Virus record (IMG/VR): IMGVR_UViG_3300032285_001531
Direction: 5' to 3' (one strand)
Length of the DNA: 64,000 nucleotides
Source of the DNA: a virus
Taxonomy: Duplodnaviria > Caudoviricetes
The translations under genes and the position numbers were made by a program. Positions 27,748 through 47,682 of the stretch are shown here, one piece after another (within the stretch, counting starts at the first letter, position 1; each line of letters opens with the position of its first letter). A model generated the notes under the pieces. The model was not told the DNA's origin. It saw only the letters and a program-made list of their open reading frames with translations, and ran no database searches.

Positions 27748-28684
27748 CGTAATTGAAATAGCAGACCTAGATTGCATTTATCTAAGTTATGATGAACCAC
27801 AAAAAGAAGAATTTTGGGTAAAGATTCAAAACATGGTGCCATGGGCACGTAGAGTAGATGGAGTTAAAGGTAGTGATGCAGCACACAAAGCAGCCGCAGA
27901 AGCCAGCGATACTGAACGATTCATATTGATTGACGGTGACAACATTCCTAATTTTGATTTCTTTAATCTTAAATTAGATTTCACAAATAAAGACCCTAGT
28001 TACAAACAAGCACAGTATCGTTGGAGAGCAGTAAATGCTATCAATGGACTACGATACGGTAACGGTGGTATTAGTTCATGGACTAAGACTTATGTAGAGA
28101 ACATGCGCACACATGAAAATAGCGATGGAGGTGCATCGACCACTGTTGATTTTTGTTTAGACAGTAGCGATAACTTGTATTGGAGTATGTATGATTGTTA
28201 TTCAACTACATATCCTAACTACACACCATTCCAAGCATGGCGTGCCGGGTTTCGTGAAGGTGTAAAGATGTGTCTAGTAAATGGTGTAAAGCCTAGTGTT
28301 GATGAATTCAAGCAAAAAGTTGCAACTAGAAATATGGATAATCTTACTATATGGCATAATGTAGGTATGGATGTTGAGAACGGTAATTGGGCTATTCTAG
28401 GCGCACGTATGGGAACGTATATGACTATGATGACAGATTGGGATAATAATCAAGTTCAATGGTTCGATAACTTTATCACAATGTGGGAAGAATGTAAAGA
28501 TAAGGATCCTATACGTGAATCAACATTATTTGGTGCAGCACTTATGGATAAATTAGGGTTACCTACAGCTACGTTGAGTAAAGAACAAAGTAAATTTTTC
28601 AAACGACACTATATGGCAGACAAACACAACTTGGGGCCATTAGTACGTGAGATGGACGTGATACGAAAGATAGAAGGTTGGTAA
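27740..28684 (+). CDS. Glycosyltransferase-like protein
   Basis: DCIYLSYDEP..WARRVDGVKGSDAAHKAAA..FILIDGDN has a GT-A-like core with DxD; homologous to the C-terminal domain of 31020-32567 (W[R/K]TAFRE/WRAGFRE motif). Confidence 0.5.
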   Translation: MSDVIEIADLDCIYLSYDEPQKEEFWVKIQNMVPWARRVDGVKGSDAAHKAAAEASDTERFILIDGDNIPNFDFFNLKLDFTNKDPSYKQAQYRWRAVNAINGLRYGNGGISSWTKTYVENMRTHENSDGGASTTVDFCLDSSDNLYWSMYDCYSTTYPNYTPFQAWRAGFREGVKMCLVNGVKPSVDEFKQKVATRNMDNLTIWHNVGMDVENGNWAILGARMGTYMTMMTDWDNNQVQWFDNFITMWEECKDKDPIRESTLFGAALMDKLGLPTATLSKEQSKFFKRHYMADKHNLGPLVREMDVIRKIEGW

Positions 28685-30024
28685 TGAAAATAAAAACTAT
28701 ATTCAAAAATTTATATAGAAAAGTAAGAGTAAAGCTAATAAGGATACAAAAAACAGTGATAGATAAACCTGACTTATCTAATAAATTATGTGCAGTGCCT
28801 TGGATGCACTTAAATTTTGAACCTAATGGCAAAGTAGTTCCTTGCTGTCTTACATCAACTTATAATTATTTTGCAGGAGATTTAACAAAGCAAAGCATTA
28901 ATGATATTTGGAATAGCGGGAATATGAAAGATTTGCGCATTCAAATGATGAACAATGTAGAGCCTGAAATCTGCAGAAAATGTTATGATAAAGAAAGAGT
29001 AACAGGAGAAAGTGGAAGAACATATCACAATCTTGAGTTCAAAAGTGTATTAAAACAGATACCAGTTATTACTAAGTCTGATGGTACTTGTACTAAGATG
29101 GAATTAAAATATTGGGATTTTAGATTTAGTAATTTATGTAATCTGAAGTGTCGCAGTTGTGGTCCGCGCTATAGTTCTGCGTGGGTGCCTGATGCTAAGA
29201 AATTAGGATATGCCGATCAGGAAAAAGTATGGAATATTGAATCAGTAGGTACTACTCCTAATTATGATTTTCTTAAAGAGCAAGTAGAGTATGTTGAGAA
29301 AATATATTTTGCAGGTGGTGAACCTTTATTGATGCCTGAGCATTGGCAGATACTAGACTTATTGGTACAAAATAGAAGATTCGATGTAAAATTATCATAC
29401 AATACAAACTGCACGACTTTAACATACGGTAAAAAGAATATCGTAGATTATTGGGGGCAATGGGAGTTTGGTAAGATAGAAGTATGGCCAAGTTTAGATG
29501 AAATAGATAATCGTGCTGAACTTGTGCGTAGCGGTACTGATTGGAAAAAAGTAGAAGAAAATCTAAAAGAACTCAATGAACTAGACAATATAATTGTGCG
29601 ACCTGGAATAACAGTAGGAGTGTTCAATGTGTTTAGATTGCCGCAAATAATTAATAGACTAGTAGAACTAAATGTTATAAATGAACGACATTGGTATAAA
29701 AACTTTTTTATTAATTTGTTAGAAGATCCAAAGCACTATCATGTTCATGTGCTGCCGGATGAATTTAGACAAAAAACGATAACAGATTTAAACAATTTTG
29801 TCAATGATTATAATAAAAAGTATAGTACTGATATTAGTCCTCACTTCAAACAGATATTGTTTGAATTGACTAGACCTTACAACAGCAAAGCAGCTAAAGA
29901 TTTTTTACGAGTTACTGGAGAAGTTGATAGGATACGCAATGAAGATACATTTGCTACCATTCCAGAATTACATGTTATTAGAATGAAATATCCAAACATA
30001 TATGAAACTGCAAAGAATATATAG
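28684..30024 (+). CDS. Radical SAM protein with an N-terminal SPASM/twitch-like Cys cluster
   Basis: CxxxCxxC motif CNLKCRSC, GGEP, N-terminal CAVPW..PCC..C..C; start placed at the TAATG overlap at 28684. Confidence 0.85.
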   Translation: MKIKTIFKNLYRKVRVKLIRIQKTVIDKPDLSNKLCAVPWMHLNFEPNGKVVPCCLTSTYNYFAGDLTKQSINDIWNSGNMKDLRIQMMNNVEPEICRKCYDKERVTGESGRTYHNLEFKSVLKQIPVITKSDGTCTKMELKYWDFRFSNLCNLKCRSCGPRYSSAWVPDAKKLGYADQEKVWNIESVGTTPNYDFLKEQVEYVEKIYFAGGEPLLMPEHWQILDLLVQNRRFDVKLSYNTNCTTLTYGKKNIVDYWGQWEFGKIEVWPSLDEIDNRAELVRSGTDWKKVEENLKELNELDNIIVRPGITVGVFNVFRLPQIINRLVELNVINERHWYKNFFINLLEDPKHYHVHVLPDEFRQKTITDLNNFVNDYNKKYSTDISPHFKQILFELTRPYNSKAAKDFLRVTGEVDRIRNEDTFATIPELHVIRMKYPNIYETAKNI

Positions 30025-32571: not shown

Positions 32572-32742
32572 ATGACACTTATTTGGGTATTACTAGTATT
32601 TGTAACTAATGACGGAGAATGGCGTGAATGGAACTCCTTTACCCGTGAGAGTGAGTGTTTGGAAGTAGCAAGAGTAATCACACATCACCGTGAAGATAGT
32701 ATTCAAGCTATGTGTGTAGCAAAACCAGTTATTAGTTCTTAA
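32572..32742 (+). CDS. 56-aa small protein absent from the ORF track (MTLIWVLLVFVTNDGEWREWNSFTRESECLEVARVITHHREDSIQAMCVAKPVISS)
   Basis: Translated by hand; hydrophobic N-terminus and two Cys; fills the gap between the late promoter and the tmRNA. Confidence 0.6.
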   Translation: MTLIWVLLVFVTNDGEWREWNSFTRESECLEVARVITHHREDSIQAMCVAKPVISS

Positions 32743-33000
32743 AGAATTGTTGTAATTCCTTCAAAGTGAAGGCATTCTGGACGCGGGTTCGACTCCCGCC
32801 TGGTCCACCATAAGAGCATACTGTGTTTTTATGATGGGCTAGACATGGTTTCGACAGGGTGAGATAATAGAGAAGGCAACACAGTAGGCGATGACTGTAA
32901 ATCAAGCAAAATTAGTATCTGCAAACGATGATACATATCTATTAGCCGCAAACGGCTAATTAGCGGGGCAACTATGCCTTGTTACCAAAAATAGTAATAG
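32743..33000 (+). ncRNA. ssrA: Circularly permuted (two-piece) tmRNA
   Basis: The 3' tRNA-like half (GCGGG-TTCGACT-CCCGC T-arm, CTGGTCC-A-CCA ending at 32810) precedes the 5' half GGGCTAG at 32836. The acceptor stem carries the G3-U70 Ala identity pair; CAGGGTG/CATTCTG form helix 2; tag ORF 32921-32959 is preceded by the conserved UA at -5/-4. Outer ends are approximate. Confidence 0.9.
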
Positions 33001-33017
33001 GAGCTTCGGCTCCTATT
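32996..33017 (+). terminator. Rho-independent terminator after the tmRNA
   Basis: AATAGGAGC-TTCG-GCTCCTATT followed by TATTT. Confidence 0.75.
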
Positions 33018-33024
33018 TATTTGG

Positions 33025-33050
33025 ATAAAAGGCTCTTCGGAGCCTTTTAT
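33025..33050. terminator. Bidirectional terminator
   Basis: ATAAAAGGCTC-TTCG-GAGCCTTTTAT at the junction of convergent transcription units. Confidence 0.8.
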
Positions 33051-33971: not shown

Positions 33972-34613
33972 TTATTTTTTCATTAGTTCATTTACAAATT
34001 CTAGTAATAAGTCATGCTGACCACCATGCCACTTATTCTTCATCCATGAATACATAGTATACCAGTTTTCTTCTGCTTCAGGATGACAGCCCATGATTCC
34101 AATTCTGCCTTGAAATATAGCCATTGGGTCACCGTTTGCGTAAGTAGCGTAGGTTTCAAATTTAGTTCTGTCGCCTTCTAATGCGCATCCATCGTAGAAG
34201 AACATGGTCATATCTTTGCCGTTCCAATTGATAGAGATGTCTTTTGCATGTGGTCTGCGTGTATCTGTGTTGGGTTGAGTAATATATTGTACTGCATCTA
34301 CACTGTCTAGTATATCAAAATAATGTGATCCTGCCCAATATGCACCCATACAAATACCCAAATATCTACCGCCTCTTGCCACAAAGTCACGTATTCTAGG
34401 AGCATGATGTTTCATCAAATAATGCCAACTTTCACTGTCTCCGTCACCCCCAGGGAAGGCTACGATATCTACATCATCAAAGAAATCATCTTCAATTTGG
34501 TGCCAAGTGAACAATTTTAGATTAAAATGAGTAGAAAAAGCCTTAATCATTCCGTTGGCACACTGCACCGAACAACGGGGTTGATGTATGAATAAAGCTA
34601 TTGTAGGTTTCAT
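33972..34613 (-). CDS. Class I glutamine-amidotransferase-like (BPL_N-type) protein
   Basis: DIVAFPGG, GGRYLGICMGAY (nucleophile-elbow Cys) and GCHPEA (His-x-Glu). Confidence 0.75.
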   Translation of the reverse strand: MKPTIALFIHQPRCSVQCANGMIKAFSTHFNLKLFTWHQIEDDFFDDVDIVAFPGGDGDSESWHYLMKHHAPRIRDFVARGGRYLGICMGAYWAGSHYFDILDSVDAVQYITQPNTDTRRPHAKDISINWNGKDMTMFFYDGCALEGDRTKFETYATYANGDPMAIFQGRIGIMGCHPEAEENWYTMYSWMKNKWHGGQHDLLLEFVNELMKK

Positions 34614-34626: not shown

Positions 34627-34688
34627 TCGGATAAAAAGTTACTGGTTACGAGTTCCAGTGACACTCTATAAGCGTGTCCGATTTAAGT

Positions 34689-35399
34689 TTAATTCCAGTA
34701 CGTACTATTGTCTAGTTTGTTCCAGTATTCTATATTGTTACGATTTATAAAGTTTTTGATGAGGTACGCAGCCATTCCAAAATAGCCCATTTTCTTAAAT
34801 CTGCGTGAATCCTGTCCAAAGTAATGTTTGATGATTTTGAATTTTTTCGGACTATACATTCTGGATAGGAAATAATCTTCAGAGGTCGAGAACTTTTCAG
34901 GGAACCCACCAAATTCTTCAAACTTGTCTCTACGAGTGAGCATGAACGCACCCACAGCAAATGGGCTAAAATATTTTAGAACACTATTAACTAAATTAAA
35001 GATACTAAAGCCAATAGCTGTTCTCCAATCATCATCGTAACACATGATATTCAATCCAACTAAATCTAAGTTATTACTTTCAATTTCATTAACTGCATCT
35101 TGTATAACATATTTGCTGAAAAAACGGACATCAGCATCAATAAACAAAATATATGGAGTAGTAACTAATCTTGCTCCGTTGTTCTTAGCGACACTAACAG
35201 GACCACCATCTATGATTTCTATATTTAAAAAAGCACTATTGTCTTTTATAACTTGTCTGGTATTGTCTGTAGAACAATCAGCAATAATAATTCTAGTACC
35301 ACCTAGCTCCTGTAAGCGCAGGGAATCAATTAAATGATAAATGTAATTTTCTTCATTTTTGCAAGGAACTACAATTGTAATTTTTTCACTTAGTTTCAT
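34689..35399 (-). CDS. Family 2 glycosyltransferase
   Basis: ITIVVPCKNEE, IIIADCSTDNT, ILFIDAD (DxD) and SED motifs. Start moved to MKLSEK at 35399, which is ATGA-coupled to the hidden ORF. Confidence 0.85.
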   Translation of the reverse strand: MKLSEKITIVVPCKNEENYIYHLIDSLRLQELGGTRIIIADCSTDNTRQVIKDNSAFLNIEIIDGGPVSVAKNNGARLVTTPYILFIDADVRFFSKYVIQDAVNEIESNNLDLVGLNIMCYDDDWRTAIGFSIFNLVNSVLKYFSPFAVGAFMLTRRDKFEEFGGFPEKFSTSEDYFLSRMYSPKKFKIIKHYFGQDSRRFKKMGYFGMAAYLIKNFINRNNIEYWNKLDNSTYWN

Positions 35400-35569
35400 A
35401 TTTTTTTTACGCATTTACCTTCAATCTTAAATGATTCAAATTTTACCCAATAAGCCATGCTTCTTAGACTTTGTTCGCAACTTTGTTGATCTGGAAAATC
35501 CATTGTCATTTTCGCTGGAATGTCCTTTGGATCGTTTATGTGTACCGCTATCAATATCATCAACCACAT
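35396..35569 (-). CDS. Hidden 57-aa protein (MWLMILIAVHINDPKDIPAKMTMDFPDQQSCEQSLRSMAYWVKFESFKIEGKCVKKI)
   Basis: GGAG RBS 7 nt before the ATG; its TGA overlaps the GT2 start (ATGA); overlaps the last 134 nt of the phosphoesterase gene in another frame. Confidence 0.65.
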   Translation of the reverse strand: MWLMILIAVHINDPKDIPAKMTMDFPDQQSCEQSLRSMAYWVKFESFKIEGKCVKKI

Positions 35570-36320
35570 TATCTGTCTCCTGTGTCCAAGTTACAATCTC
35601 CCACTTACCATTGTGATGTTCTACAAGTGCAGTCATTGATTCAACCCAATCACCGTCGTTCATATAAACGACACCATCTACTTCTTTTATCTCTGCATGA
35701 TGTATATGACCACATATAACACCATCAAATCCTCGCTTCTTACAATACTGTGCTAAGTTCTTTTCAAACTGGAACATAAAGTCTATGGCTCGTTTGACTT
35801 TTCCTTTAAGATACTTAGAAAGGCTCCAATAACCAAAACCCATCCTATGACGGATCCAATTAAATCGAGTGTTGAGAGCAAGGACGAAATCATAGGCTTT
35901 ATCTCCTAATATTGAAAGCCAAGGTGCTAGTCTTGTGATTCCATCAAACAAGTCACCATGCACTACTAAGTAATGCTTACCATCTACACCTATATGTTCT
36001 ATTTGATTGGTAATCTCTAGCATACCAAATCCTAAACCATAATGCATAAAAGGTCTTAAGAACTCGTCATGGTTACCTGCTACGTATACAACTCGTGTAC
36101 CACGTTTGCTATGACCAAGTATTCTACGTATCACATTACTATGACTTTGTTTCCAGCGCCACTTGTTTTGTTTAATCTTCCAAGCATCAATGATGTCACC
36201 AACAAGGTATAATGTTTCGCAACTGTTATTCTTTAAGAAATTGTTTAGTGCTTCTGCTTTACAGTCTTTAGTACCTAAATGTACATCACTGATAAAAATA
36301 CTGCGATAAGTCTTATTCAT
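35436..36320 (-). CDS. plcP: PlcP-like metallophosphoesterase (phospholipase C of the LpxH/calcineurin-like superfamily)
   Basis: FISDVHLG, LVGDIID, GNHDEFLR, HGDLFD, LGDKAYD, GYWSLS, GVICGHIH and NDGDWVES match the PlcP/UDP-2,3-diacylglucosamine-hydrolase-like family. The upstream Pho box and downstream GT favour PlcP over LpxH. Confidence 0.75.
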   Translation of the reverse strand: MNKTYRSIFISDVHLGTKDCKAEALNNFLKNNSCETLYLVGDIIDAWKIKQNKWRWKQSHSNVIRRILGHSKRGTRVVYVAGNHDEFLRPFMHYGLGFGMLEITNQIEHIGVDGKHYLVVHGDLFDGITRLAPWLSILGDKAYDFVLALNTRFNWIRHRMGFGYWSLSKYLKGKVKRAIDFMFQFEKNLAQYCKKRGFDGVICGHIHHAEIKEVDGVVYMNDGDWVESMTALVEHHNGKWEIVTWTQETDNVVDDIDSGTHKRSKGHSSENDNGFSRSTKLRTKSKKHGLLGKI

Positions 36321-36338
36321 GTTATTATCCTATATAAT

Positions 36339-36373
36339 TATTTAATAGGAATTGTGTGACAATAATATGACAA
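36339..36373 (-). promoter_or_regulatory. Pho box promoter for plcP-orf57-GT2
   Basis: Minus strand TTGTCAT-ATTA-TTGTCAC (36373-36356, 11-bp period), a 10-nt spacer, then TTAAATA. Confidence 0.8.
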
Positions 36374-36380
36374 ACCGTAA

Positions 36381-36404
36381 AAAAAGGCACCTAAGTGCCT
36401 TTTT
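36381..36404. terminator. Rho-independent terminator after the porin gene
   Basis: AAAAAGGCAC-CTAA-GTGCCTTTTT. Confidence 0.8.
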
Positions 36405-36422
36405 ATTTTGCTCTAAATTAGA

Positions 36423-37547
36423 TTAGAAGCGATGCTGAATGCCAACTGCAAATGCACGTTGACTTAAAGCACTGTCACCAAAGTTTGAGCCACCACCATC
36501 TGGTACCCAACGATCATAAACAGTAAATGGTGCTGCTGCGTTTGCATTGCGGTTAGCAACTACATAGTCAGCGAACACTTCTGTACGCTTGCTGAATGCA
36601 TAAACTGCACCAACTGCATACATCTTAACATCATCTTTACCTGCTGTTACTTGGTCTTGTACATTGTAGTAACCACCGTTAACACTTACACGATCGGTAA
36701 CTTTGTACTTCGCACCAGCAAACCAAGTACGTGCATCAGTCTTACCGTCAGCTTTCGATGAGCTTGCACGGAATGCTGTTAGTGTATTTGGATTGTTAGT
36801 GATAACATAACCAGCGTTAACTAGTAAAGCATCAGTAACATTATACTTTGCTGCAACTAAGTCGATCTTTTCATCAACGTTAGCATTGGTTAAACGAACT
36901 TCTTCGTGTGTATATGCTACTTCTACTGGACCTGCTGTATACTTACCACCAATGTTGTAGCTGCTCTTTGAAGTAGTATCATTTAACTGATTACCAAAAC
37001 TATAAGAACCATCAACAACTAAGCCACCAAAGCTTGGTGATGTATAGCGAACCATGTTATCAAAACGTGATACGCCTGAACCACTATAGAAACCAGCATA
37101 ACGTGCGATTGGCTTTAAGCCACCGAAGTTCCAGTTGCCACGTGAATCAAATTCATCAAGTACGTTGTACAAGAAGTTCTTGCCACGACCTAATTGAATC
37201 TGACCAAATGAACCAGCTAGGGCTACATTTGCTTCACGATCAAATACTGTGGTTGAACCTGCACCGCCACTGCCTGAATCTTTACCAATTCCGCCAGTAC
37301 GTAGACTCAAGTTACTTTCTAAGTTAAACTTAGCTGTCATACCGTCGCCTAGGTCTTCTACACCTTTGAAGCCTAACCGATTGCTGCTGTGTAACTGTTC
37401 ACCGAAACCAGTGAAGTCACTGTTAGCTGAAGTGAAACCACTACCGCTAACTACACCTGCACCCAACAAACCATAAACGGTAACGTTCTGTGCCTGTGCA
37501 ACACCAGCCATAAGCATAAGTGCTGCTACTAATTTTGTTACTTTCAT
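36423..37547 (-). CDS. Gram-negative trimeric porin (betaproteobacterial Omp32-like)
   Basis: Signal peptide ending AQA; NVTVYG, RLGFKGVEDLGDGMTAKFNLE, FDREANVAL.G.FG.I.LGR, N.V.Y.SP.FGG, Y.FSKRT; C-terminal GIQHRF; ATGA-coupled to pstS. Confidence 0.9.
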   Translation of the reverse strand: MKVTKLVAALMLMAGVAQAQNVTVYGLLGAGVVSGSGFTSANSDFTGFGEQLHSSNRLGFKGVEDLGDGMTAKFNLESNLSLRTGGIGKDSGSGGAGSTTVFDREANVALAGSFGQIQLGRGKNFLYNVLDEFDSRGNWNFGGLKPIARYAGFYSGSGVSRFDNMVRYTSPSFGGLVVDGSYSFGNQLNDTTSKSSYNIGGKYTAGPVEVAYTHEEVRLTNANVDEKIDLVAAKYNVTDALLVNAGYVITNNPNTLTAFRASSSKADGKTDARTWFAGAKYKVTDRVSVNGGYYNVQDQVTAGKDDVKMYAVGAVYAFSKRTEVFADYVVANRNANAAAPFTVYDRWVPDGGGSNFGDSALSQRAFAVGIQHRF

Positions 37548-38551
37548 TTTACTTCTCCTAAGTTAAATTTAGACCATACATTCTTAACTATGGCAACTAC
37601 CTCTTTTGGTAGAGGAACATAGTCAAGTTCTACAGCCATCTTTTCTCCATTGTTAAAAGACCAATTGAAAAATTTTAAAACAGCTAATCCGACCGCAGGA
37701 TCGGCTTGCTGCTTATGCATGATTATATACGATGCACCTGTAATGGGCCAAGCATTCTGGTTAGATTGGTCTGTTAATATAACAGCCATACCAGGTGAAT
37801 TAGCCCAATCAGCACCTATTGCTGCTGCTTTGAATGTATCGTCATCAGGTTGAATCCATTTGCCTGCTTTGTTCTTTACTTGAACATGTGCAATTTTATT
37901 CTTTTTGGCATATGCGTATTCTACATAGCCAATTGCACCTTGCAGTCTTTGTGCGTTTGCAGCAACACCTTCGTTACCTTTGCCGCCTACGCCTGTTGGC
38001 CATTTAACTGCTGTACCTGAACCAACCTTTTCTTTCCATTCAGGAACTGTTTTGCTTAACCAGTCAGTGAACAAAAATGTTGTGCCTGAACCATCAGCAC
38101 GATGTAGTACAGTGATATCCATATCAGGAAACTTAACTGTTGGGTTTAGTTCTTTGATACGAGGATCAGTCCACTTAGTGATTTTGCCTAAGTATATAGC
38201 AGCAATTACATCTGCTGTTAATTTTATTTGCCCAGGCTGAATGCCAACTAGATTTACAACTGGAACTACTCCACCGATAATAGCTGGGAATTGAACTAAA
38301 CCTTCTTTGTCTAGTTCTTCTTGTTTCAACGGCATATCACTTGCACCAAAATCTACTGTTTTAGCTTTGATTTGTTTAATACCACCACCTGAACCAATTG
38401 ATTGATAATTAAGACCTATCCCTGTTTGGGCTTTATATGCTTCTGCCCATTTAGAATAGATTGGATAGGGGAATGTTGCTCCTGCTCCTGTGATGTCTGC
38501 TGCAAATGACGTACTTGACAGAATTACAAGTACTGCGAATAATTTTTTCAC
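37544..38551 (-). CDS. pstS: Phosphate ABC transporter substrate-binding protein PstS
   Basis: Signal peptide; ITGAGATFPYP.Y.KW, YQSIGSGGG, DFGASD, RADGSGTT, GGKGNEGV, WPITG; GTG start with AAGGAG RBS. Confidence 0.95.
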   Translation of the reverse strand: MKKLFAVLVILSSTSFAADITGAGATFPYPIYSKWAEAYKAQTGIGLNYQSIGSGGGIKQIKAKTVDFGASDMPLKQEELDKEGLVQFPAIIGGVVPVVNLVGIQPGQIKLTADVIAAIYLGKITKWTDPRIKELNPTVKFPDMDITVLHRADGSGTTFLFTDWLSKTVPEWKEKVGSGTAVKWPTGVGGKGNEGVAANAQRLQGAIGYVEYAYAKKNKIAHVQVKNKAGKWIQPDDDTFKAAAIGADWANSPGMAVILTDQSNQNAWPITGASYIIMHKQQADPAVGLAVLKFFNWSFNNGEKMAVELDYVPLPKEVVAIVKNVWSKFNLGEVK

Positions 38552-38593
38552 GTGTGTGTCTCCTTTTAAATATTCATGTATAATTGCACTAAA

Positions 38594-38628
38594 TATTTAA
38601 TGGCCGCAGTATGACAACTGTGTTACAA
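38594..38628 (-). promoter_or_regulatory. Pho box promoter for pstS-porin
   Basis: Minus strand TTGTAAC-ACAG-TTGTCAT (38628-38611, 11-bp period), a 10-nt spacer, then TTAAATA. Confidence 0.75.
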
Positions 38629-38658: not shown

Positions 38659-38913
38659 ATGGAAATAAAAGCTGCATTAGACTGGCAAAAAGTCGGAACT
38701 AACCTACGTAAGCAACTATCCTCAGTAAGCTATAACCCTGATTTAAAACAGATGTTTAAGAATATTGAAGAAATGGTTTCTGAGTTAAGTAAGTCCGAAG
38801 TTGTGGCCAGACAAACAAAAAGAACGTATCACTTAGAAAGTCAAGTACAGAAGATAAACAAAGCAATCAATCATTTGGAAAAATTGATATTGATTGCTCA
38901 GGTCATGAATTAA
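38659..38913 (+). CDS. Hypothetical protein (helical/coiled-coil)
   Basis: 84-aa ORF; plus-strand TAAATA at 38590-38595; its stop overlaps the stop of the convergent gene (TTAA). Confidence 0.6.
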   Translation: MEIKAALDWQKVGTNLRKQLSSVSYNPDLKQMFKNIEEMVSELSKSEVVARQTKRTYHLESQVQKINKAINHLEKLILIAQVMN

Positions 38914-39416
38914 CCTAACGGGTTAGTTGGCCAAACAACGTCTTGTAAGCTAGTATAAGTTTTGGTGATGTCACGTAATTGTTGACGGTATTCTAACACC
39001 TCTTTAAGTTTGGCATCAGTTAGTGTAGTGGTCAATCCTAACGCTTTTTCTTCATTGTGTCTAGTAAATACCCAATCGGTGTTTATTAATAAGCCATCTC
39101 TATATTGTGCTAGTGTTGGTTCTGATGGCATAATAGCAATCATATCAGTTAATAATGCTTCTTTGAAATTATCCAAATGACTCATTATCCATTGAATTTC
39201 TTCACTGTGTTCATCATGCTTTTGTGTGTTGTCACTGTACACGATTGTGAAAATATTTCTTGCTGGCTCTACACTAATCGCTACTAAATTATCTTTGTAC
39301 GGAAACTTAGTTAGGTCATAAAACTCTGCTTCCGAACTAAATGCATGTTCAATGTTATCAATTCTTGCAGAATAGTTTTGGTTTAAAAAATCAAGTGTAA
39401 TATAATTCTGTTTCAT
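38910..39416 (-). CDS. Tail fibre assembly chaperone-like protein
   Basis: C-terminal L..YRQQLRDIT....VVWPTNP is typical of phage tail assembly chaperones; follows the fibre genes. Confidence 0.65.
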   Translation of the reverse strand: MKQNYITLDFLNQNYSARIDNIEHAFSSEAEFYDLTKFPYKDNLVAISVEPARNIFTIVYSDNTQKHDEHSEEIQWIMSHLDNFKEALLTDMIAIMPSEPTLAQYRDGLLINTDWVFTRHNEEKALGLTTTLTDAKLKEVLEYRQQLRDITKTYTSLQDVVWPTNPLG

Positions 39417-39419
39417 GGT

Positions 39420-40565
39420 TTATCCTTTATACTGTATAAATGCAATTTTAATTGTACCTGGATCATAGTTCACTCCGCTAAATGAAGGAGTTACTGTATG
39501 AAAATGTGATGCACTAAATGTGGCATGCGGTACACTTGCTAATGTTGCGGGTGTTGCTCCTGGAATCCCTGATCCTTTGTGACTGTGATTCCACGTATTA
39601 TTTGTAACGCTACCTGTTGCGGTAATATTGTTTGCTGAACCAGCAGTAGTGTTATATGCTAATTGACTCCCTACACCCACAAAGTAATTAACCATATTTA
39701 CGGTTCCGTTATTGCCGTCACATACATACCATCCTGCAGGTAAACTTGTTAATGATCCTGAATACATTAGAATACAATTTAGATTCAAATAAGTTTCTGC
39801 AGTACTTCCCCATGCTGATAATAGTTTGGTTAGAATTGATGCAGCCGCAATAGTCAATGACAAGTTATGTGAATGAGTAGTAGTAGTTACATACGGATAA
39901 TTAGTAGATGTTACTGTTGCAGGATTATATGCATAATTAGTATCAATATGACTATGTGTTCCGCCTGTTGCAGTCGATCTAAGATTAGTTACAGGAGTAC
40001 TAGAAGTAGCACCATTAAACAATCCACCACGTATTGGTAAATTGTTAGGGGTGATTTGAGTAAATGTTGATGCAGGTTGATTCTGTGAAAACACGATACA
40101 ATCGGTAGGTAGTCTAGTTGTTTCTGCGGTACATTGTATTATAATATATGTTTGATAATTAGCCACACCAGGTACTGTTATTGTAGATAAATCGAGTGAG
40201 GTTACTGTATGATTATGAGAACCTGAGGTACCTAAATTAAACCATCCACCAGGAAAAGCAATTCCTACTGGATTATATGCAGGACCAAATGATGTTTGTG
40301 TAGGAAAGTGAGCACCTGCACTATTAATAGAAACATTCAAACTACCTGATAATGATGCAGTTGTAGTAGTTTCAATATCAACTTGCGTAGCAGTACCTTT
40401 TATATAATGACCGTCTGCTGTACCATATCTAGTCCAACCAGGCAAACTTGTAAATGTATTATTGTAAAATACCAATGCACCAATTGGTATTACCGGAGGT
40501 GGTCCTGGTAACGGGGGATAAAAACCCATTGTTGAAAAAGGAGAAGCAGTTGATAGTCTAGGCAT
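39420..40565 (-). CDS. Tail-collar/distal fibre protein with HxH motifs
   Basis: Two collar-like segments (PIGALVFY..LPGW; ILMYSG..LPAGWYVCDGNNGT) and five HxH motifs. Confidence 0.65.
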   Translation of the reverse strand: MPRLSTASPFSTMGFYPPLPGPPPVIPIGALVFYNNTFTSLPGWTRYGTADGHYIKGTATQVDIETTTTASLSGSLNVSINSAGAHFPTQTSFGPAYNPVGIAFPGGWFNLGTSGSHNHTVTSLDLSTITVPGVANYQTYIIIQCTAETTRLPTDCIVFSQNQPASTFTQITPNNLPIRGGLFNGATSSTPVTNLRSTATGGTHSHIDTNYAYNPATVTSTNYPYVTTTTHSHNLSLTIAAASILTKLLSAWGSTAETYLNLNCILMYSGSLTSLPAGWYVCDGNNGTVNMVNYFVGVGSQLAYNTTAGSANNITATGSVTNNTWNHSHKGSGIPGATPATLASVPHATFSASHFHTVTPSFSGVNYDPGTIKIAFIQYKG

Positions 40566-40566
40566 T

Positions 40567-43446
40567 TTATCCGCCGTAACTTGCTAATTGACCTAAAACT
40601 TTCCAGTCTGAAGTTGTTCGTATTAATGTGAAACCAACAACGTCTATTGCATTAGCAGTACCTACAGGGATTGTATTACTTAACCAATTAACTGTTTGAA
40701 ACACACCGTCAATCTGAAATTGATTTGCGATGTATGCACTAATTCCCTGCTCAATAATGATAGGCACAACAATAGTTCTATTGCCTGTAGTAGGAACATT
40801 AGTTAAGTTAACAGTGAAGTTATCCGCTACACTCGTGTGATAGTAAATAGCACCTGTTTGGAAATTATGTGTAACAGTTCCGGTAGCACTTGTTTTCTGA
40901 TTCATTATATCAGTTGTTTGCTGGAACGTAGCTAAGTTAGATAGATTTATTCCACCTAAATTACTAGTACCGGTTATACTTAAGTTACCGCCCGATATAG
41001 CATTAGCACTTGTAAAGTTCGCTCCGCTAACAGCACCAGTAATATTTGCGTATCCCTGTATGTTTGCACCAGTAGATGTAATGGTCATTACTAATGCACT
41101 AGAACTTGTAAATCTAATATTATTATTTGCTTGAACTACTACATTACTATTACCATTAATGATTTGACTGTTTGCAGTAACACTGACATTATACAATCCT
41201 GAACCATCACCTTGGAAAAAGTTAGCAGTAGCTAAGTTACCTAAGTTAGCATTTGCTGCTCTTAAGTTACCGAATACGTTAGCATTGCCTGAAGTTTGTA
41301 TTTGTGTAAATATACCAATATTAGGTGTATTGCCACCTATTGCACCATTGATATTTCCGAATACATTTGCGTTTACGTTATTAGCGGTAATGTTACCGGT
41401 AACAGTAAGGCTTAATAAGTTACCTACGCTTGTTATATTTGGTTGACTAACTGTAGTTAAAGTACCTGCAATATAACCCGCATTAAGATTAGCTACATTG
41501 GTAACACCACTCTTTAATACAGAGAACTTAGATATACCACCAACTTGTAAATCAATTAATAATGATCCTGCACTACTATTGGTGTCTATTATATTTTCTT
41601 TGATTCCAGTAAATGCAACACTTGCATTATTCCATGTTTGTGTAATTTGTATTGGGCTAGTAGCAGTTAGTGTTCCGGAACCAACACTTAATCCAGTTAA
41701 TGTTCCTAAGGTAGTAATATTACTTTGAGTAGCATTAACTACATTTCCTACGTAGTTTGCATAGTTAGCATTAGTAGAATTAGTTACTGTGCCGGCATAT
41801 GTTGCATAGTTTGCATTTGCAACTTCACTTACATTAGCACCATTGATACTGAATAAACTGCTGCCGTTACCTTGGAAGAAATTTGCAGTTGCTATATTAC
41901 CTAAATTGGCATTAGCTGAATTAATATTTCCAGCTACATTGAATAGATTAGATACCCTATTGAATGTAAGACCACTTGTAGCACCTAATACACCGTCATT
42001 ATTAAACAATACAAATGTATTAGCACCTGGCAAATTAATATTGCCGTTTACATTACCAGTTAAACTACCAACAAAGTAGTTAGCAGTTACGGTGTTGCCT
42101 AATGTTGCATTACCAGATGTAATAGTACCACTTACACTTAGACTAGTTAATGTCCCGACTGAAGTTATATTTGGTTGTGCTGCTGTTGTTACTGTACCAG
42201 CAGTTGTTGCTGAAGTAGCAGTAGTTGCAGTAGTTGCTGCGCCTGCGGTGACTGCATATGTTGCATTGGCTACTGTGCCAGCAACATTAGGTCCTTGTAT
42301 GTTACTTAAATTATTACCACTACCGACAAAGAAATTAGCATTTGCTGTGTTACCCAGTATAGCGTTACCGGAGGTAACTGTGCCACTAATACTTAAACTA
42401 GTTAGTATACCTACTGAAGTAATGTTAGGTTGTGCTGCAGTCACTACTGTTCCAGCAGTAGTTGCATTGCCTGAAAGATTCGCAGTAATTACATTAGCAG
42501 CAAAGCTATTAGCAGCATCACGTATTACAACTGTATCCGGTGTGTTAGTAGCAGCTGGTTCATAACCTTGTAATAATTCTGCATTTAAATTACCGATTTG
42601 TGTGTTGCTACTAACAACAAATGGTGCTGTGCCTGTAGACAGTGTGCTAATGAATTGCCCAGCTGTTTTAAAATTACCGCTTGTAAGTAAATTACCACTT
42701 CCTGAGGTTACAGAAACAGTTCCGATACTGATACCATTAGAAGAAAGATATAGTTTATCAAATCGTTGTGACGGTGAACCTAAGTCATATGTATTGCTAG
42801 AGTTAGGTAATATATCACCTACAACATTTCCACTTAAACTCAGTACAGTTAATGCACCTAAACTTGTTATATTGGGCTGTGAGCTGGATGTTAACACACC
42901 AGTAAAGTAATTAGCTGTCGCTGTGTTACCTAAACTAGCATTTGCTGCAAACACGCCCATTGATGCATTTAAGTTGCCTGTGTCAATATTACCTGACACT
43001 GCTAAACCAAGCAATGTACCTACGTTAGTGATACCTGGTTGACTAGATGCTACAATAGCACCTGAGATATTAGCCGCTACTAATGTGCTATTACCTGTAA
43101 AGAATTTTAAATTAGGATTGGCAGCGAAAACACCACCTGTATTAAACTGTACTTCAGTTGAGTTACCCGCAGCAGCCTGAGCAGATTGTGCTACCCAATC
43201 TAAGTTTCCGGTTCCGTCTGTTTTAAGTACAAAGTCAGCGGATCCGCCCGTAATTCTGACATTACCCACATTGCCCAAAGAAGTGTTACCTGTAACACTA
43301 AGATTAGGGGTTTGTAAGAACGGTATATTGATGCCTGCAGGGACGAACCCAATTCTGCTCCACGCATTATCTGTAGAACTGTATTGGTATAAAATACCAT
43401 TGATTTCGACTTGTTGCCCATTTGTGGGCGTTGCTGGCCAACTCAT
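40567..43446 (-). CDS. Long tail-fibre-like protein
   Basis: Asn/Ala/Gly/Thr-rich with QPNITSVG.L..L and ANANYA.YAG repeats; modules shared with 57561-61577. Confidence 0.7.
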   Translation of the reverse strand: MSWPATPTNGQQVEINGILYQYSSTDNAWSRIGFVPAGINIPFLQTPNLSVTGNTSLGNVGNVRITGGSADFVLKTDGTGNLDWVAQSAQAAAGNSTEVQFNTGGVFAANPNLKFFTGNSTLVAANISGAIVASSQPGITNVGTLLGLAVSGNIDTGNLNASMGVFAANASLGNTATANYFTGVLTSSSQPNITSLGALTVLSLSGNVVGDILPNSSNTYDLGSPSQRFDKLYLSSNGISIGTVSVTSGSGNLLTSGNFKTAGQFISTLSTGTAPFVVSSNTQIGNLNAELLQGYEPAATNTPDTVVIRDAANSFAANVITANLSGNATTAGTVVTAAQPNITSVGILTSLSISGTVTSGNAILGNTANANFFVGSGNNLSNIQGPNVAGTVANATYAVTAGAATTATTATSATTAGTVTTAAQPNITSVGTLTSLSVSGTITSGNATLGNTVTANYFVGSLTGNVNGNINLPGANTFVLFNNDGVLGATSGLTFNRVSNLFNVAGNINSANANLGNIATANFFQGNGSSLFSINGANVSEVANANYATYAGTVTNSTNANYANYVGNVVNATQSNITTLGTLTGLSVGSGTLTATSPIQITQTWNNASVAFTGIKENIIDTNSSAGSLLIDLQVGGISKFSVLKSGVTNVANLNAGYIAGTLTTVSQPNITSVGNLLSLTVTGNITANNVNANVFGNINGAIGGNTPNIGIFTQIQTSGNANVFGNLRAANANLGNLATANFFQGDGSGLYNVSVTANSQIINGNSNVVVQANNNIRFTSSSALVMTITSTGANIQGYANITGAVSGANFTSANAISGGNLSITGTSNLGGINLSNLATFQQTTDIMNQKTSATGTVTHNFQTGAIYYHTSVADNFTVNLTNVPTTGNRTIVVPIIIEQGISAYIANQFQIDGVFQTVNWLSNTIPVGTANAIDVVGFTLIRTTSDWKVLGQLASYGG

Positions 43447-45162: not shown

Positions 45163-46263
45163 ATGGCATCACAAATCAGCGATAACCATACAATTACAAG
45201 TGTACAAACACGTGACGCATTACTAACCGCATTTAAAGTTAAACGCCCAATCTTTCTTTGGGGCCCTCCCGGTATCGGTAAATCTGAAGTAGTTTCAGAA
45301 GTAACTGATGAACTTGGTGGTCTTATGATTGACTTACGTATGGCTCAAATGGAACCAACTGACATTCGAGGTATCCCATACTTTAATAAAGAAAATAATA
45401 AAATGGATTGGGCACCCCCAATCGATTTACCTGATGAAGAATTAGCAGCACAATATCCAATCATTGTGTTGTTCTTAGATGAGATGAACTCAGCACCTCC
45501 TGCAGTACAAGCAGCAGGCTATCAGTTGATTTTGAATCGCCGTGTAGGTCGTTATAAACTACCAAACAATGTTGTTATCGTAGCAGCAGGTAATCGTGAC
45601 AGTGACAAAGGTGTTACTTATCGTATGCCGATGCCGCTTGCTAATCGTTTCATTCACTTAGAAATGCGTTCAGATTTTACAGCATGGCAGGCTTGGGCAG
45701 TAAATAAAGCTATTCACAAAGACGTTGTTGGTTATCTGTCATTTGCTAAAAATGACTTATATGACTTTGATAGCAAATCTTCAAGCCGTGCATTTGCTAC
45801 ACCTCGTTCATGGTGCTTTGTGAGTGACTTGTTACAAGATGAAAAAATGAGTTCTGATACTCAATTCAATCTAATTGCAGGTGCAATTGGTGAAGGTCTT
45901 GCTACTAAGTTTGCAGCACATCGCCGTATGGCAGGTAAGATGCCTGAGCCAAGCGAAATTCTTGCAGGCAAAGTAAAAGAACTAGCAGTCAAAGAAGTTT
46001 CTGCAATGTACGCACTAGCTATTGCAATGTGCTATGAATTAAAAGATGCAGTTGACAATAAGAAAGTGGATATGAAGAAGTTCCACGAAATGGCTGATAA
46101 TTTCTTTGCTTATGCGATGGCTAACTTTGAAACTGAATTGGTTGTTGTTAGTGCTAAAATTGCACTGAAAACATACAAGCTTCCAATCGAACCAAGTCAG
46201 TTGAAAAACTTTGACGAATTTCACAAGAAGTTCGGTAAGTATATCGTAGAAGCAGGTAACTAA
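45163..46263 (+). CDS. MoxR-type AAA+ ATPase
   Basis: Walker A GPPGIGKS, Walker B LFLDEMN, AAGNR, PLANRF and ATPRSW. Confidence 0.85.
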   Translation: MASQISDNHTITSVQTRDALLTAFKVKRPIFLWGPPGIGKSEVVSEVTDELGGLMIDLRMAQMEPTDIRGIPYFNKENNKMDWAPPIDLPDEELAAQYPIIVLFLDEMNSAPPAVQAAGYQLILNRRVGRYKLPNNVVIVAAGNRDSDKGVTYRMPMPLANRFIHLEMRSDFTAWQAWAVNKAIHKDVVGYLSFAKNDLYDFDSKSSSRAFATPRSWCFVSDLLQDEKMSSDTQFNLIAGAIGEGLATKFAAHRRMAGKMPEPSEILAGKVKELAVKEVSAMYALAIAMCYELKDAVDNKKVDMKKFHEMADNFFAYAMANFETELVVVSAKIALKTYKLPIEPSQLKNFDEFHKKFGKYIVEAGN

Positions 46264-46300
46264 TTTAGAGGTAGCTCCCTGGTATAGCAATATACCATTT

Positions 46301-46332
46301 GGGTGAGAGTAGAAATATTCTCACCCGTTTTT
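46301..46332 (+). terminator. Rho-independent terminator (preceded by a second GNRA hairpin at 46280-46297)
   Basis: GGGTGAGAGTA-GAAA-TATTCTCACCC followed by GTTTTT. Confidence 0.8.
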
Positions 46333-46337
46333 AATTC

Positions 46338-46366
46338 TTGACAGTGAATCTATGCTTTGCTATAAT
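46338..46366 (+). promoter_or_regulatory. Early sigma70 promoter
   Basis: TTGACA-17 nt-TATAAT; TAGGAGCTCAAA RBS. Confidence 0.85.
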
Positions 46367-46395
46367 TATTATGTTACTTTTAATAGGAGCTCAAA

Positions 46396-47682
46396 ATGAG
46401 TGATGTTGTCGGAAAGAAAAAGAAAAAACGCAGCAAAGAATTTGAAAATTTAGTAGGTCCCACTGACCCTAAAATTGATGCACAAGCACGTGAACGATTA
46501 ATTACTGCTCGTGTAGGTTTGTTATTACGTCATAGTTTTTTCGGTAATCTTGCAACACGTTTGCAAATGATTAATGCTGATGAATGGTGCAGCACTGCTG
46601 CTACCGACGGCAAACGTTTCTATTACAATTCACGTTTCATTATGATGTTAAAGACCAAAGAAGTTGAATTTTTAGTTGGTCACGAAGTATTACATGTAGT
46701 ATATGACCATATGGGTCGTAGAGGTACACGTGATCCTCAGCTATGGAACATTGCAGATGACTATGCAGTTAACGCAGATTTGAAACGTCATCGTGTAGGT
46801 GAATTCATTACTACTGTCCCTTGCTTATATGAATCAAAATATGACGGCATGAGTGCTGAGGCAATCTATGATGATTTGTATGACAAAGCAGAAAAAATCA
46901 ATATTGATGATTTGTTAGATAAGATGATTGACGATCATATGGATGGTGATGGTGAGTGTGATGGAGATAATGAGGGTGATGAAGATAGTGAAGGCAATGG
47001 CAAACGTCCTAAGATGAGTCCTGAAGAACGTGAACAAGCCCGTCAAGAAATGAAACAGGCTATTATCAGTGCTGCACAAAGTGCTGAAGCAGGTACTATT
47101 CCAAAAGGTGTTGAACGTTTAATTAAATCAGTTACTAACCCTGTTATGCCTTGGCGTGAATTGATTCAAACTAACTTAACTAGTGCTATTCGCACTGACT
47201 ATAGTTGGATACGCCCGAGTCGTAGAGGCTGGCATATGGATGCAGTAATGCCCGGCATGACACCAGGTGAAGAAATTGACGTTGATATTGCTATTGACAT
47301 GTCAGGCTCAATCAGTGACACACAAGCACAGGCATTCTTAGCTGAGATTGCAGGAATGATGGATGCATTTGATGGATACCGTGTTCATGTATTCTGCTTT
47401 GATACAAGCATTTATAATCCACGTGATTATACAAGTGAGAATCTTGACAGTATTGATGAGTATGAACCACAAGGTGGTGGCGGTACTGACTTTGATGCTG
47501 TCTTTGACTATCTAAAAGAAGCAGGTCGTGTACCAAATCGTTTAATCGTATTCACAGATGGTTATCCATGTGGTAGTTGGGGCGATTCAAATTATTGTGA
47601 TACTACTTGGATCATTCATGGTGACAAAGATCCTAATCCCCCATTTGGTACATTTGCAATATATGATGACCATAAGAAGTAA
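46396..47682 (+). CDS. Putative metallopeptidase plus vWA domain protein (DUF2201-like), partner of the MoxR ATPase
   Basis: TAATDG..HEVLH (HExxH); acidic linker; MIDAS-like DMSGS; GGGGTDF; VFTDG. Confidence 0.8.
   Translation: MSDVVGKKKKKRSKEFENLVGPTDPKIDAQARERLITARVGLLLRHSFFGNLATRLQMINADEWCSTAATDGKRFYYNSRFIMMLKTKEVEFLVGHEVLHVVYDHMGRRGTRDPQLWNIADDYAVNADLKRHRVGEFITTVPCLYESKYDGMSAEAIYDDLYDKAEKINIDDLLDKMIDDHMDGDGECDGDNEGDEDSEGNGKRPKMSPEEREQARQEMKQAIISAAQSAEAGTIPKGVERLIKSVTNPVMPWRELIQTNLTSAIRTDYSWIRPSRRGWHMDAVMPGMTPGEEIDVDIAIDMSGSISDTQAQAFLAEIAGMMDAFDGYRVHVFCFDTSIYNPRDYTSENLDSIDEYEPQGGGGTDFDAVFDYLKEAGRVPNRLIVFTDGYPCGSWGDSNYCDTTWIIHGDKDPNPPFGTFAIYDDHKK

Follow-up and report, generated by a model that had tools for sequence, protein, structure and literature searches.

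To our knowledge, control of the phosphorus status of the host by phages has so far been documented mainly for the cyanophage genes pstS and phoA. Cyanophage pstS is under the control of host PhoBR, according to Zeng and Chisholm 2012 as cited in PMC10976474. In cells, operons that join plcP to a glycosyltransferase gene behind Pho boxes are a known arrangement for lipid remodelling under phosphorus stress (PMC4796936), and P. aeruginosa makes phosphorus-free glycolipids with PlcP plus Agt (PMC9804370). Here we describe an island of five contiguous genes on the minus strand of a viral sequence, IMG/VR record IMGVR_UViG_3300032285_001531 (Duplodnaviria; Caudoviricetes), of which a stretch of 64,000 nucleotides, referred to as the window, was analysed. 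The island (34689-38551) is organised in two units, one composed of pstS, a porin gene and a terminator, and the other of a plcP-like gene, a small gene (orf57) and the gene for a family 2 glycosyltransferase (GT2). It is probably a phage-borne phosphate-stress gene set in which each of the two units is wired to the PhoB/PhoR signal of the host. Production in most lakes is limited by phosphorus, the genome of a large phage is costly in this element, and a large share of the phosphorus of a cell sits in its membrane phospholipids.

Gene order and promoter sites of the island

The first unit begins with pstS (37544-38551, minus strand, as are all features of the island), which has a GTG start codon behind AAGGAG, and continues with the gene for a Porin_4 porin (36423-37547; PF13609, 1.4e-45). 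It is closed by an intrinsic terminator (36381-36404, or 36375-36404 in its wider delimitation) that is located between the porin gene and plcP and is kept in the related contigs L276, L277 and L081. The second unit encodes a calcineurin-type, PlcP-like metallophosphoesterase of 294 amino acids (35436-36320; PF00149, 7.7e-12), the 57-residue product of orf57 (35396-35569), which is nested between PlcP and GT2, and GT2 itself (open reading frame (ORF) 34689-35414; PF00535, 1.7e-21). An initial annotation of the window had proposed five contiguous minus-strand genes in two operons, encoding PstS, a porin, a PlcP-like enzyme, a small ORF and a GT2 enzyme; all five ORFs are found at the positions that it gave, the identities that it assigned are upheld by profile matches and by the context of cellular orthologues, and its division into two operons holds as well. 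Two details of its description have been corrected, as the final 134 nt of the PlcP reading frame are shared with orf57, and the probable start of GT2 is the second ATG of its ORF (35399), which overlaps the orf57 stop codon.

Each unit is preceded by an 18-bp tandem TGTMAY site. The site upstream of pstS (38611-38628, minus strand; TTGTAACACAGTTGTCAT) contains the repeats TTGTAACACAG and TTGTCAT with an 11-bp period, and the site upstream of plcP (36356-36373, minus strand; TTGTCATATTATTGTCAC) contains the repeats TTGTCATATTA and TTGTCAC. At both sites the box is followed, after exactly 10 nt, by a -10-like TTAAAT(A) element, which reads TTAAATA at 38594-38600 in the pstS unit and at 36339-36345 in the plcP unit. 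In E. coli Pho promoters the box replaces the -35 element and lies 10 bp upstream of the -10 element. The geometry of a PhoB promoter, namely an 18-bp box with two direct repeats, an 11-bp period and 10 nt to a -10-like element, is found at both island sites. The pstS box is kept in L276 and L081 and the plcP box in L276, L277 and L081, and the plcP box of the window agrees with the E. coli consensus at 15 of 18 positions.

The comparison set consisted of 86 related IMG/VR loci that were fetched via PlcP and the porin; together with the window it amounts to 1.27 Mb. Within it, the composite motif YTGTMAY-N4-NTGTMAY-N(8-12)-TAAAT occurs 42 times, as compared to 0.03 occurrences expected from first-order Markov resamples, and each of the 42 lies directly upstream of plcP, pstS or a porin gene in loci that carry many other genes. 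In the window itself the motif is present solely at the two island sites, and among relatives it is found upstream of pstS in 17 of 27. The distance between the box and TAAAT is 11 nt at all 50 distinct sites in the fetched phage loci, and the sequence that flanks the motif is otherwise diverged among relatives. Similar sites occur in cells: Burkholderiales pstS genes have tandem CTGTCAT/CTGTAAC boxes at -70 to -120, and four 11-bp repeats are located upstream of plcP in a Polynucleobacter-like genome. Both island sites are read as genuine PhoB-type operators, a prediction from sequence that agrees with the claim of the initial annotation that a Pho box stands upstream of each operon; the sites are Pho-box-like, conserved, of fixed geometry and specific to phosphorus genes in related phages, and their half-sites match those of Burkholderiales pstS.

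The tandem repeats could instead be the operator of a phage regulator, or belong to a phage promoter class, that times these genes regardless of phosphate. We consider this unlikely. The TAAATA element downstream of the boxes is a general phage promoter-like motif, as such an explanation would have it, but the repeats themselves are limited to the pstS, plcP and porin genes throughout the 1.27 Mb, and their length, their period and their distance to the -10-like element have the values of PhoB promoters. Although the phage half-sites are mostly TGTAAY and not the textbook TGTCAY, TGTAAC and TGTAAT half-sites are also present upstream of cellular betaproteobacterial pstS, and the plcP box of the window retains its 15/18 match to the E. 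coli consensus. A different motif, TTGTGAC-N4-CCGTTAC, that precedes the same genes in other relatives fits the phage-regulator explanation.

This second motif (AAAAAAAATTCYAAATTGTGAC-N4-CCGTTAC) replaces the TGTAAY boxes upstream of the same phosphorus genes in another subgroup of relatives, where it is located upstream of pstS in L013:5400-5497, L049, L034/L035, L052/L054 and L058 and upstream of PlcP in L018. It may be a diverged Pho box suited to another host, or the site of another regulator.

PstS and the porin

The PstS protein is recognised by the NCBIfam model NF008171 with 416.9 bits (cut-off 339) and by TIGR00975 with 395.5 bits (cut-off 205). It carries a signal peptide, MKKLFAVLVILSSTSFA/AD, and its translation contains the motifs ATFP, GSGGG, ASD and RADGSGTT, which, by reference to E. 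coli PstS, we take to be phosphate-ligand residues. It is 68-75% identical to proteins of Burkholderiales, mostly from Oxalobacteraceae. The ATG of the porin gene overlaps the pstS stop codon (ATGA), and the encoded protein has a leader (MKVTKLVAALMLMAGVAQA/QN), matches PF13609 with 156.8 bits (cut-off 27) and ends in ...GIQHRF, with a terminal Phe residue. The window porin is 30-37% identical to Burkholderiales porins; no match to the OprO/P family (PF07396) was obtained for it in the Pfam search, and PHROGs holds no family for it. The equivalent porin of the relatives L081 and L013 matches PF07396 (1.4e-54 and 8.6e-47, respectively). Among the 26 relatives with room downstream of PstS, a porin gene follows PstS directly in 23, with 17 of these porins belonging to the OprO/P family and 6 to Porin_4. 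Since two unrelated porin families thus occupy a single slot, the pairing of PstS with a porin appears itself to be selected, for phosphate entry.

The PlcP-like enzyme, orf57 and GT2

The PlcP-like enzyme matches PF00149 with 46.5 bits. Its catalytic domain extends over residues ~1-247, and the metal-binding motifs DVH, GD, GNHD, HGD and GHIHH are intact and align with the catalytic motifs of LpxH, which is the closest solved structure (solved LpxH structures match the enzyme at 26 bits) and the name under which database annotation lists the protein. We reject the LpxH identity, because the scores of the LpxH equivalog models fall below their cut-offs (NF003743, 50 bits against 134; TIGR01854, 39.3 bits against 190) and because genomes with an orthologue of the phage enzyme contain a separate LpxH-like gene. 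Specifically, the enzyme is 47-54% identical (E 3e-71 to 1e-83) to proteins of S. meliloti, P. aeruginosa, Ralstonia and Herminiimonas, and a Herminiimonas genome and a Polynucleobacter-like genome each contain a single orthologue at 51% identity (E 1e-82 to 1e-86) as well as a second, weak match (E ~1e-5) that is read as LpxH. In Herminiimonas, a GT4 gene comes next after the orthologue, with ppk and pstS nearby, and the 54%-identical gene of P. aeruginosa is followed by a GT1-family gene. The sub-threshold LpxH scores, the orthologues in plcP-glycosyltransferase operons and the separate LpxH-like homologue all bear out the PlcP-like assignment of the initial annotation; as judged from sequence, the phosphoesterase is a member of the PlcP group and not LpxH, and it is predicted to have phospholipase C activity on glycerophospholipids. 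In PHROGs, the enzyme and GT2 each have weak matches only.

One cellular neighbourhood deserves separate description. In Herminiimonas aquatilis (L112:1-6000; L169), the plcP orthologue is flanked by an upstream ORF and a GT4 gene and is located ~4 kb from ppk-pstS; the upstream ORF looks acyltransferase-like by eye, and might take part in ornithine-lipid synthesis. This gene arrangement is similar to that of the phage island, which may have originated from it.

The end of the PlcP reading frame varies among relatives, with frame lengths of 265-297 codons in 70 distinct relatives, and where the two frames overlap, variability peaks at the third positions of orf57 codons and not of PlcP codons (entropy 1.14 vs 0.54). 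Because of this codon-phase entropy and the varying PlcP end, orf57 is concluded to be the gene under selection, and the PlcP tail (residues ~250-294) an unconstrained read-on into it. An alignment of 70 distinct orf57 homologues, which are 55-57 amino acids long, yields the pattern MWLMILIAVH.NDP.D.PG...L.F..Q..CEQ...KF..FKV.G.C with two invariant Cys residues, and the gene comes after PlcP in practically all relatives; orf57 is a genuine gene and is conserved. As a guess, its product might anchor PlcP to the membrane or be a small protein that partners it. PHROGs contains no family for orf57, and a look-alike search of the Atlas returned viral hypothetical clusters only, with DUF1482 at 0.79 as a weak lead. 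A 56-residue ORF at 32572-32742, taken by eye for a possible paralogue of orf57, was dropped because the two show no BLAST similarity.

GT2 is a protein of 241 amino acids with a DxD motif that matches PF00535 with 77 bits and, over residues 83-194, the GT21 family PF13506 with 33.4 bits (cut-off 21.7). Its structural model has a GT-A fold (predicted local distance difference test score, 95), and the fold matches include GT2 enzymes that act on lipid acceptors, namely CrtQ and the cyanobacterial monoglucosyl-diacylglycerol synthase. Genes for relatives of GT2 are present in 377 IMG/VR contigs, of which the best 80 were fetched; 68 of these have room upstream, and in 68 of 68 PlcP is encoded directly upstream of GT2 on the same strand. 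GT2 homologues that are 37-49% identical are found in other phage-like contigs, where an overlapping PlcP gene (38-46% identity) again precedes; two longer contigs, L267 and L268, leave no space for orf57 between PlcP and GT2, and a further homologue, 39% identical and set in a cell-like context, is without PlcP. GT2 is tightly coupled to PlcP. On the strength of this linkage and by analogy with the plcP-agt and plcP-pgt operons, we infer that GT2 glycosylates the diacylglycerol that would be produced by PlcP.

A second alternative is that the island remodels the cell envelope. The enzyme would then act on lipid A precursors or another envelope lipid and GT2 on lipopolysaccharide (LPS) or a surface glycan, the porin would replace or mask a receptor, and the module would serve superinfection exclusion or envelope conditioning. 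This explanation seems quite improbable. Its appeal derives in part from LpxH being both the database name and the closest solved structure of the enzyme, but the equivalog scores of 50 and 39 bits lie far from the cut-offs of 134 and 190, genomes with the 51%-identical orthologue retain their own LpxH-like gene, and the orthologues stand in plcP-glycosyltransferase operons near ppk-pstS. Likewise, the weak GtrB-like PHROGs matches of GT2 cover its first 50-110 residues only, and the membrane helices at the C terminus of GtrB are absent from GT2. The glycosyltransferases of pelagimyophages have been read as O-antigen modifiers (PMC7029224), and the island adjoins tail-fibre genes, as an envelope function might suggest; against this, pstS and the enzyme share a phosphorus-specific promoter motif, and in most relatives the porin slot holds a phosphate-selective OprO/P protein.

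Host, distribution and phage context

A permuted, two-piece transfer-messenger RNA (tmRNA) of the beta type is located at 32703-33050 of the window (plus strand; RF01850, 181 bits), for which ARAGORN gives the tag ANDDTYLLAANG. Given the beta-type tmRNA and the affinities of PstS, a freshwater member of the Burkholderiales is the probable host.

The PlcP-orf57 module is present in at least 597 IMG/VR contigs, and the complete order PstS-porin-PlcP-orf57-GT2, with an OprO/P porin, is found in 11 of the 86 fetched loci. The initial annotation knew of no description of the complete combination in a phage, and had proposed a search of phage genomes for co-occurrence of plcP, glycosyltransferase, pstS and porin genes; the combination is recurrent in the IMG/VR loci and not rare. 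A freshwater cyanophage also carries a PlcP-like homologue. No near-identical phage was found by megablast against GenBank and INPHARED, and the matches obtained were short ones to pstS and PlcP only. Searches of the literature outside subscription journals found no description of the island or of a link between PlcP and phages, and the papers on pelagimyophages, OM43 phages and freshwater cyanophages that were searched yielded no discussion of the PlcP-like gene. A viral metatranscriptome from Lake Baikal files 'lpxH' under LPS biosynthesis.

Genes for a protein with a tail-assembly-chaperone domain (38910-39416), for long tail-fibre-like proteins (39420-43446) and for a large terminase of the T4 type (61626-63176) are present in the window, and the island is placed between the tail-fibre genes and further genes of the phage. 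L276, a 124-kb ENA contig from an independent assembly, matches the window gene by gene from the tail fibre to the gene past GT2, at ~90% protein identity, and the arrangement is thus not an assembly artefact; the island is real and phage-borne. Host DNA mis-assembled into a phage contig, the contamination that the initial annotation had itself named as a threat to its reading, can be discarded with near certainty, for although the G+C content is 0.42 over pstS as compared to ~0.35 for the window, and PstS is 68-75% identical to cellular proteins, the same order is flanked by tail-fibre and tail-chaperone genes in the independent assemblies L276 and L081, the modules are carried by hundreds of IMG/VR contigs, the cellular loci have a G+C content of 50-70%, GT2 and orf57 are without close cellular counterparts among the sequences searched, and the terminase and other phage genes are present in the same window.

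Neighbouring features

A two-hairpin element of ~45 nt is located directly 3' of the GT2 stop codon (34640-34684, minus strand) and is represented by 51 distinct copies with covarying stems. It consists of AAAUCGG, stem 1, the loop CAAnGAUnGnG and stem 1', followed by CUGG-AACYCGUAA-CCAG, with covariation in stem 1 and in the closing pair of stem 2. Further copies are located at L013:7950-7995, L081:9630-9676 and L082:9115-9160 and at ~50 other loci. All copies lie on the strand that codes for the island genes. They occur either immediately 3' of the porin or GT2 stop codon, in many cases with a terminator and TAAATA behind them, or at a distance of 8-9 nt ahead of the PlcP ATG, in loci where no Shine-Dalgarno sequence is visible. 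The element has no match in Rfam at the gathering threshold; it may act in RNA processing or in translation, or may mark cassette junctions as PeSL of T4 does.

Adjacent to the element, a 213-residue BPL_N / class-I glutamine-amidotransferase-like protein with its own GATAAATA motif is encoded at 33972-34613 (minus strand); its gene recurs beside the island in approximately half of the related loci, on either side and on either strand. Elsewhere on the plus strand, the window contains a single ORF of 5463 codons (6188-22579) that comes after two ORFs without a Pfam match (1118 and 765 codons), a gene for a radical-SAM/SPASM protein (28678-30024), and genes for an AAA ATPase and then a DUF2201 metallopeptidase/VWA protein (45163-47682).

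Discussion

The best available interpretation of the island is that it combines phosphate uptake with the mining of membrane lipids. In the first unit, the exported PstS and the outer-membrane porin, which are translationally coupled, would bring more phosphate across the outer membrane and capture it for the host PstCAB importer. In the second, the PlcP-type metallophospholipase C would remove the phosphorylated head groups of host phospholipids to yield diacylglycerol, orf57 would provide a small conserved partner protein, and GT2 would most likely glycosylate the diacylglycerol, producing a phosphorus-free glycolipid that keeps the membrane intact until lysis. Because both promoters have the geometry of PhoB-dependent ones (two 7-bp repeats, an 11-bp period and 10 nt), both units would be boosted in a phosphate-starved Burkholderiales-type host, supplying phosphorus for replication of the phage genome.

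Several observations weigh against this interpretation. The E. coli Pho-box consensus, searched with up to three mismatches, has two matches in the window (the plcP site and one unrelated) as compared to 0.53 expected, and two matches are also reached in 7 of 100 shuffles of the window, which taken alone is therefore weak evidence; it is the comparative evidence, consisting of conservation, fixed geometry and phosphorus-gene specificity, that lifts the sites above chance. TAAATA also precedes 18 of the 56 called genes of the window, structural ones included (e.g. the tail-fibre gene), and it resembles the core of T4-late-type promoters, a core for which we know of no activation by PhoB. Since TAAATA is a general phage promoter-like motif, activation may act on a phage-type core, unlike that of a plain sigma-70 Pho promoter. 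A role of the Porin_4 porin in the passage of phosphate or other anions is putative. The cellular comparators of the phosphoesterase are PlcP by identity and context, and not by validated locus tag; as these matches are not tied to published locus tags, membership of the PlcP group rests on the 47-54% identity and the gene context. With regard to GT2, the proteins retrieved by the fold search are unspecific GT-A enzymes whose acceptors are of many kinds, a survey of 301 Burkholderiales genomes yielded no homologue closer than 31% identity, and the GT4 / Glycos_transf_1 domains of the Agt type are not matched, the phage glycosyltransferase matching GT2-type families only. Approximately half of the PlcP-orf57 loci are without GT2, and GT2 is for this reason regarded as accessory to PlcP and dispensable for its role. 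Finally, an experimental test in cyanophage S-PM2d cautions that predicted phage Pho boxes often fail experimentally (PMC10976474).

The island is a widespread, unrecognised module that falls within the known theme of phage auxiliary genes for phosphorus stress, and its novel parts are the porin, the PlcP-orf57-GT2 unit and the rigid Pho-box/TAAATA promoters. We further propose, with the reserve due to an idea that may well prove wrong, that a self-contained PlcP-orf57-GT2 pathway, by which phospholipids are converted into phosphorus-free glycolipids and phosphorus is set free for the synthesis of phage DNA, is present in phages that infect freshwater Betaproteobacteria and, reduced in extent, in pelagiphages, and that this pathway and an adjoining PstS-porin module are both driven by hybrid promoters in which a site for host PhoB stands at a fixed distance from the TAAATA of the phage. 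If true, this would be the first viral auxiliary pathway for lipid remodelling, and the frequent annotation of freshwater virome genes as 'viral lpxH / LPS biosynthesis' would be mistaken. The island would widen the manipulation of phosphorus by phages to those that infect heterotrophs, to the outer membrane, through the porin, and to an internal phosphorus reservoir. Its conserved set of Pho-box promoters offers clean material on how a host response regulator might drive phage promoters, and the analysis draws attention to a gene that hundreds of viral contigs carry and that is systematically mis-annotated as LpxH or under LPS biosynthesis.

Comparison with known systems

In pelagibacter phage Mosig EXVC030M (MT647606; Mosig_00119/00120), as in the island, pstS adjoins a gene for a 51%-identical PlcP-like protein, there annotated as an LpxH-type hydrolase, that is accompanied by a small overlapping ORF. 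The two Mosig genes are divergent, however, whereas those of the island are in tandem, and the Mosig locus contains neither a porin gene nor GT2; its small ORF is unlike orf57, with no BLAST similarity between the two.

With the phosphorus-stress genes of cyanophages (pstS, phoA) the island shares a phage pstS behind a Pho box of the host type and the logic of raising phosphate uptake during infection of a phosphorus-starved host. It differs in that the cyanophage boxes are of the cyanobacterial PyTTAAPyPy(T/A) type, as opposed to the proteobacterial TGTMAY sites and betaproteobacterial host here, and in that a large phage here pairs PstS with a porin and adds a second Pho-box unit for lipid turnover.

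The prophage porins of enterobacteria, Lc of PA-2 and NmpC of DLP12, are lysogenic-conversion genes of temperate lambdoid phages. Like the island porin, they are phage-encoded general trimeric porins with their own signal peptides, but they are unlinked to pstS, whereas the island porin is translationally coupled to it and is exchanged for OprO/P in relatives. LpxH and the island enzyme have in common the metallophosphoesterase fold class with an inserted helical cap; the island enzyme nevertheless scores far below the curated LpxH cut-offs, and a separate LpxH-like homologue exists alongside the cellular PlcP orthologue.

The cellular plcP-agt and plcP-pgt operons of S. meliloti, Phaeobacter MED193, SAR11 HTCC7211 and P. 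aeruginosa resemble the second unit in having a Pho box, PlcP and a downstream glycosyltransferase (PMC4796936, PMC9804370). Their glycosyltransferase is Agt (GT4) or Pgt (GT21), whereas that of the island is a 241-residue GT2 enzyme without a close relative in the cellular genomes searched, and the island differs further in that it nests a conserved 57-residue gene within the unit and is carried by a virus.

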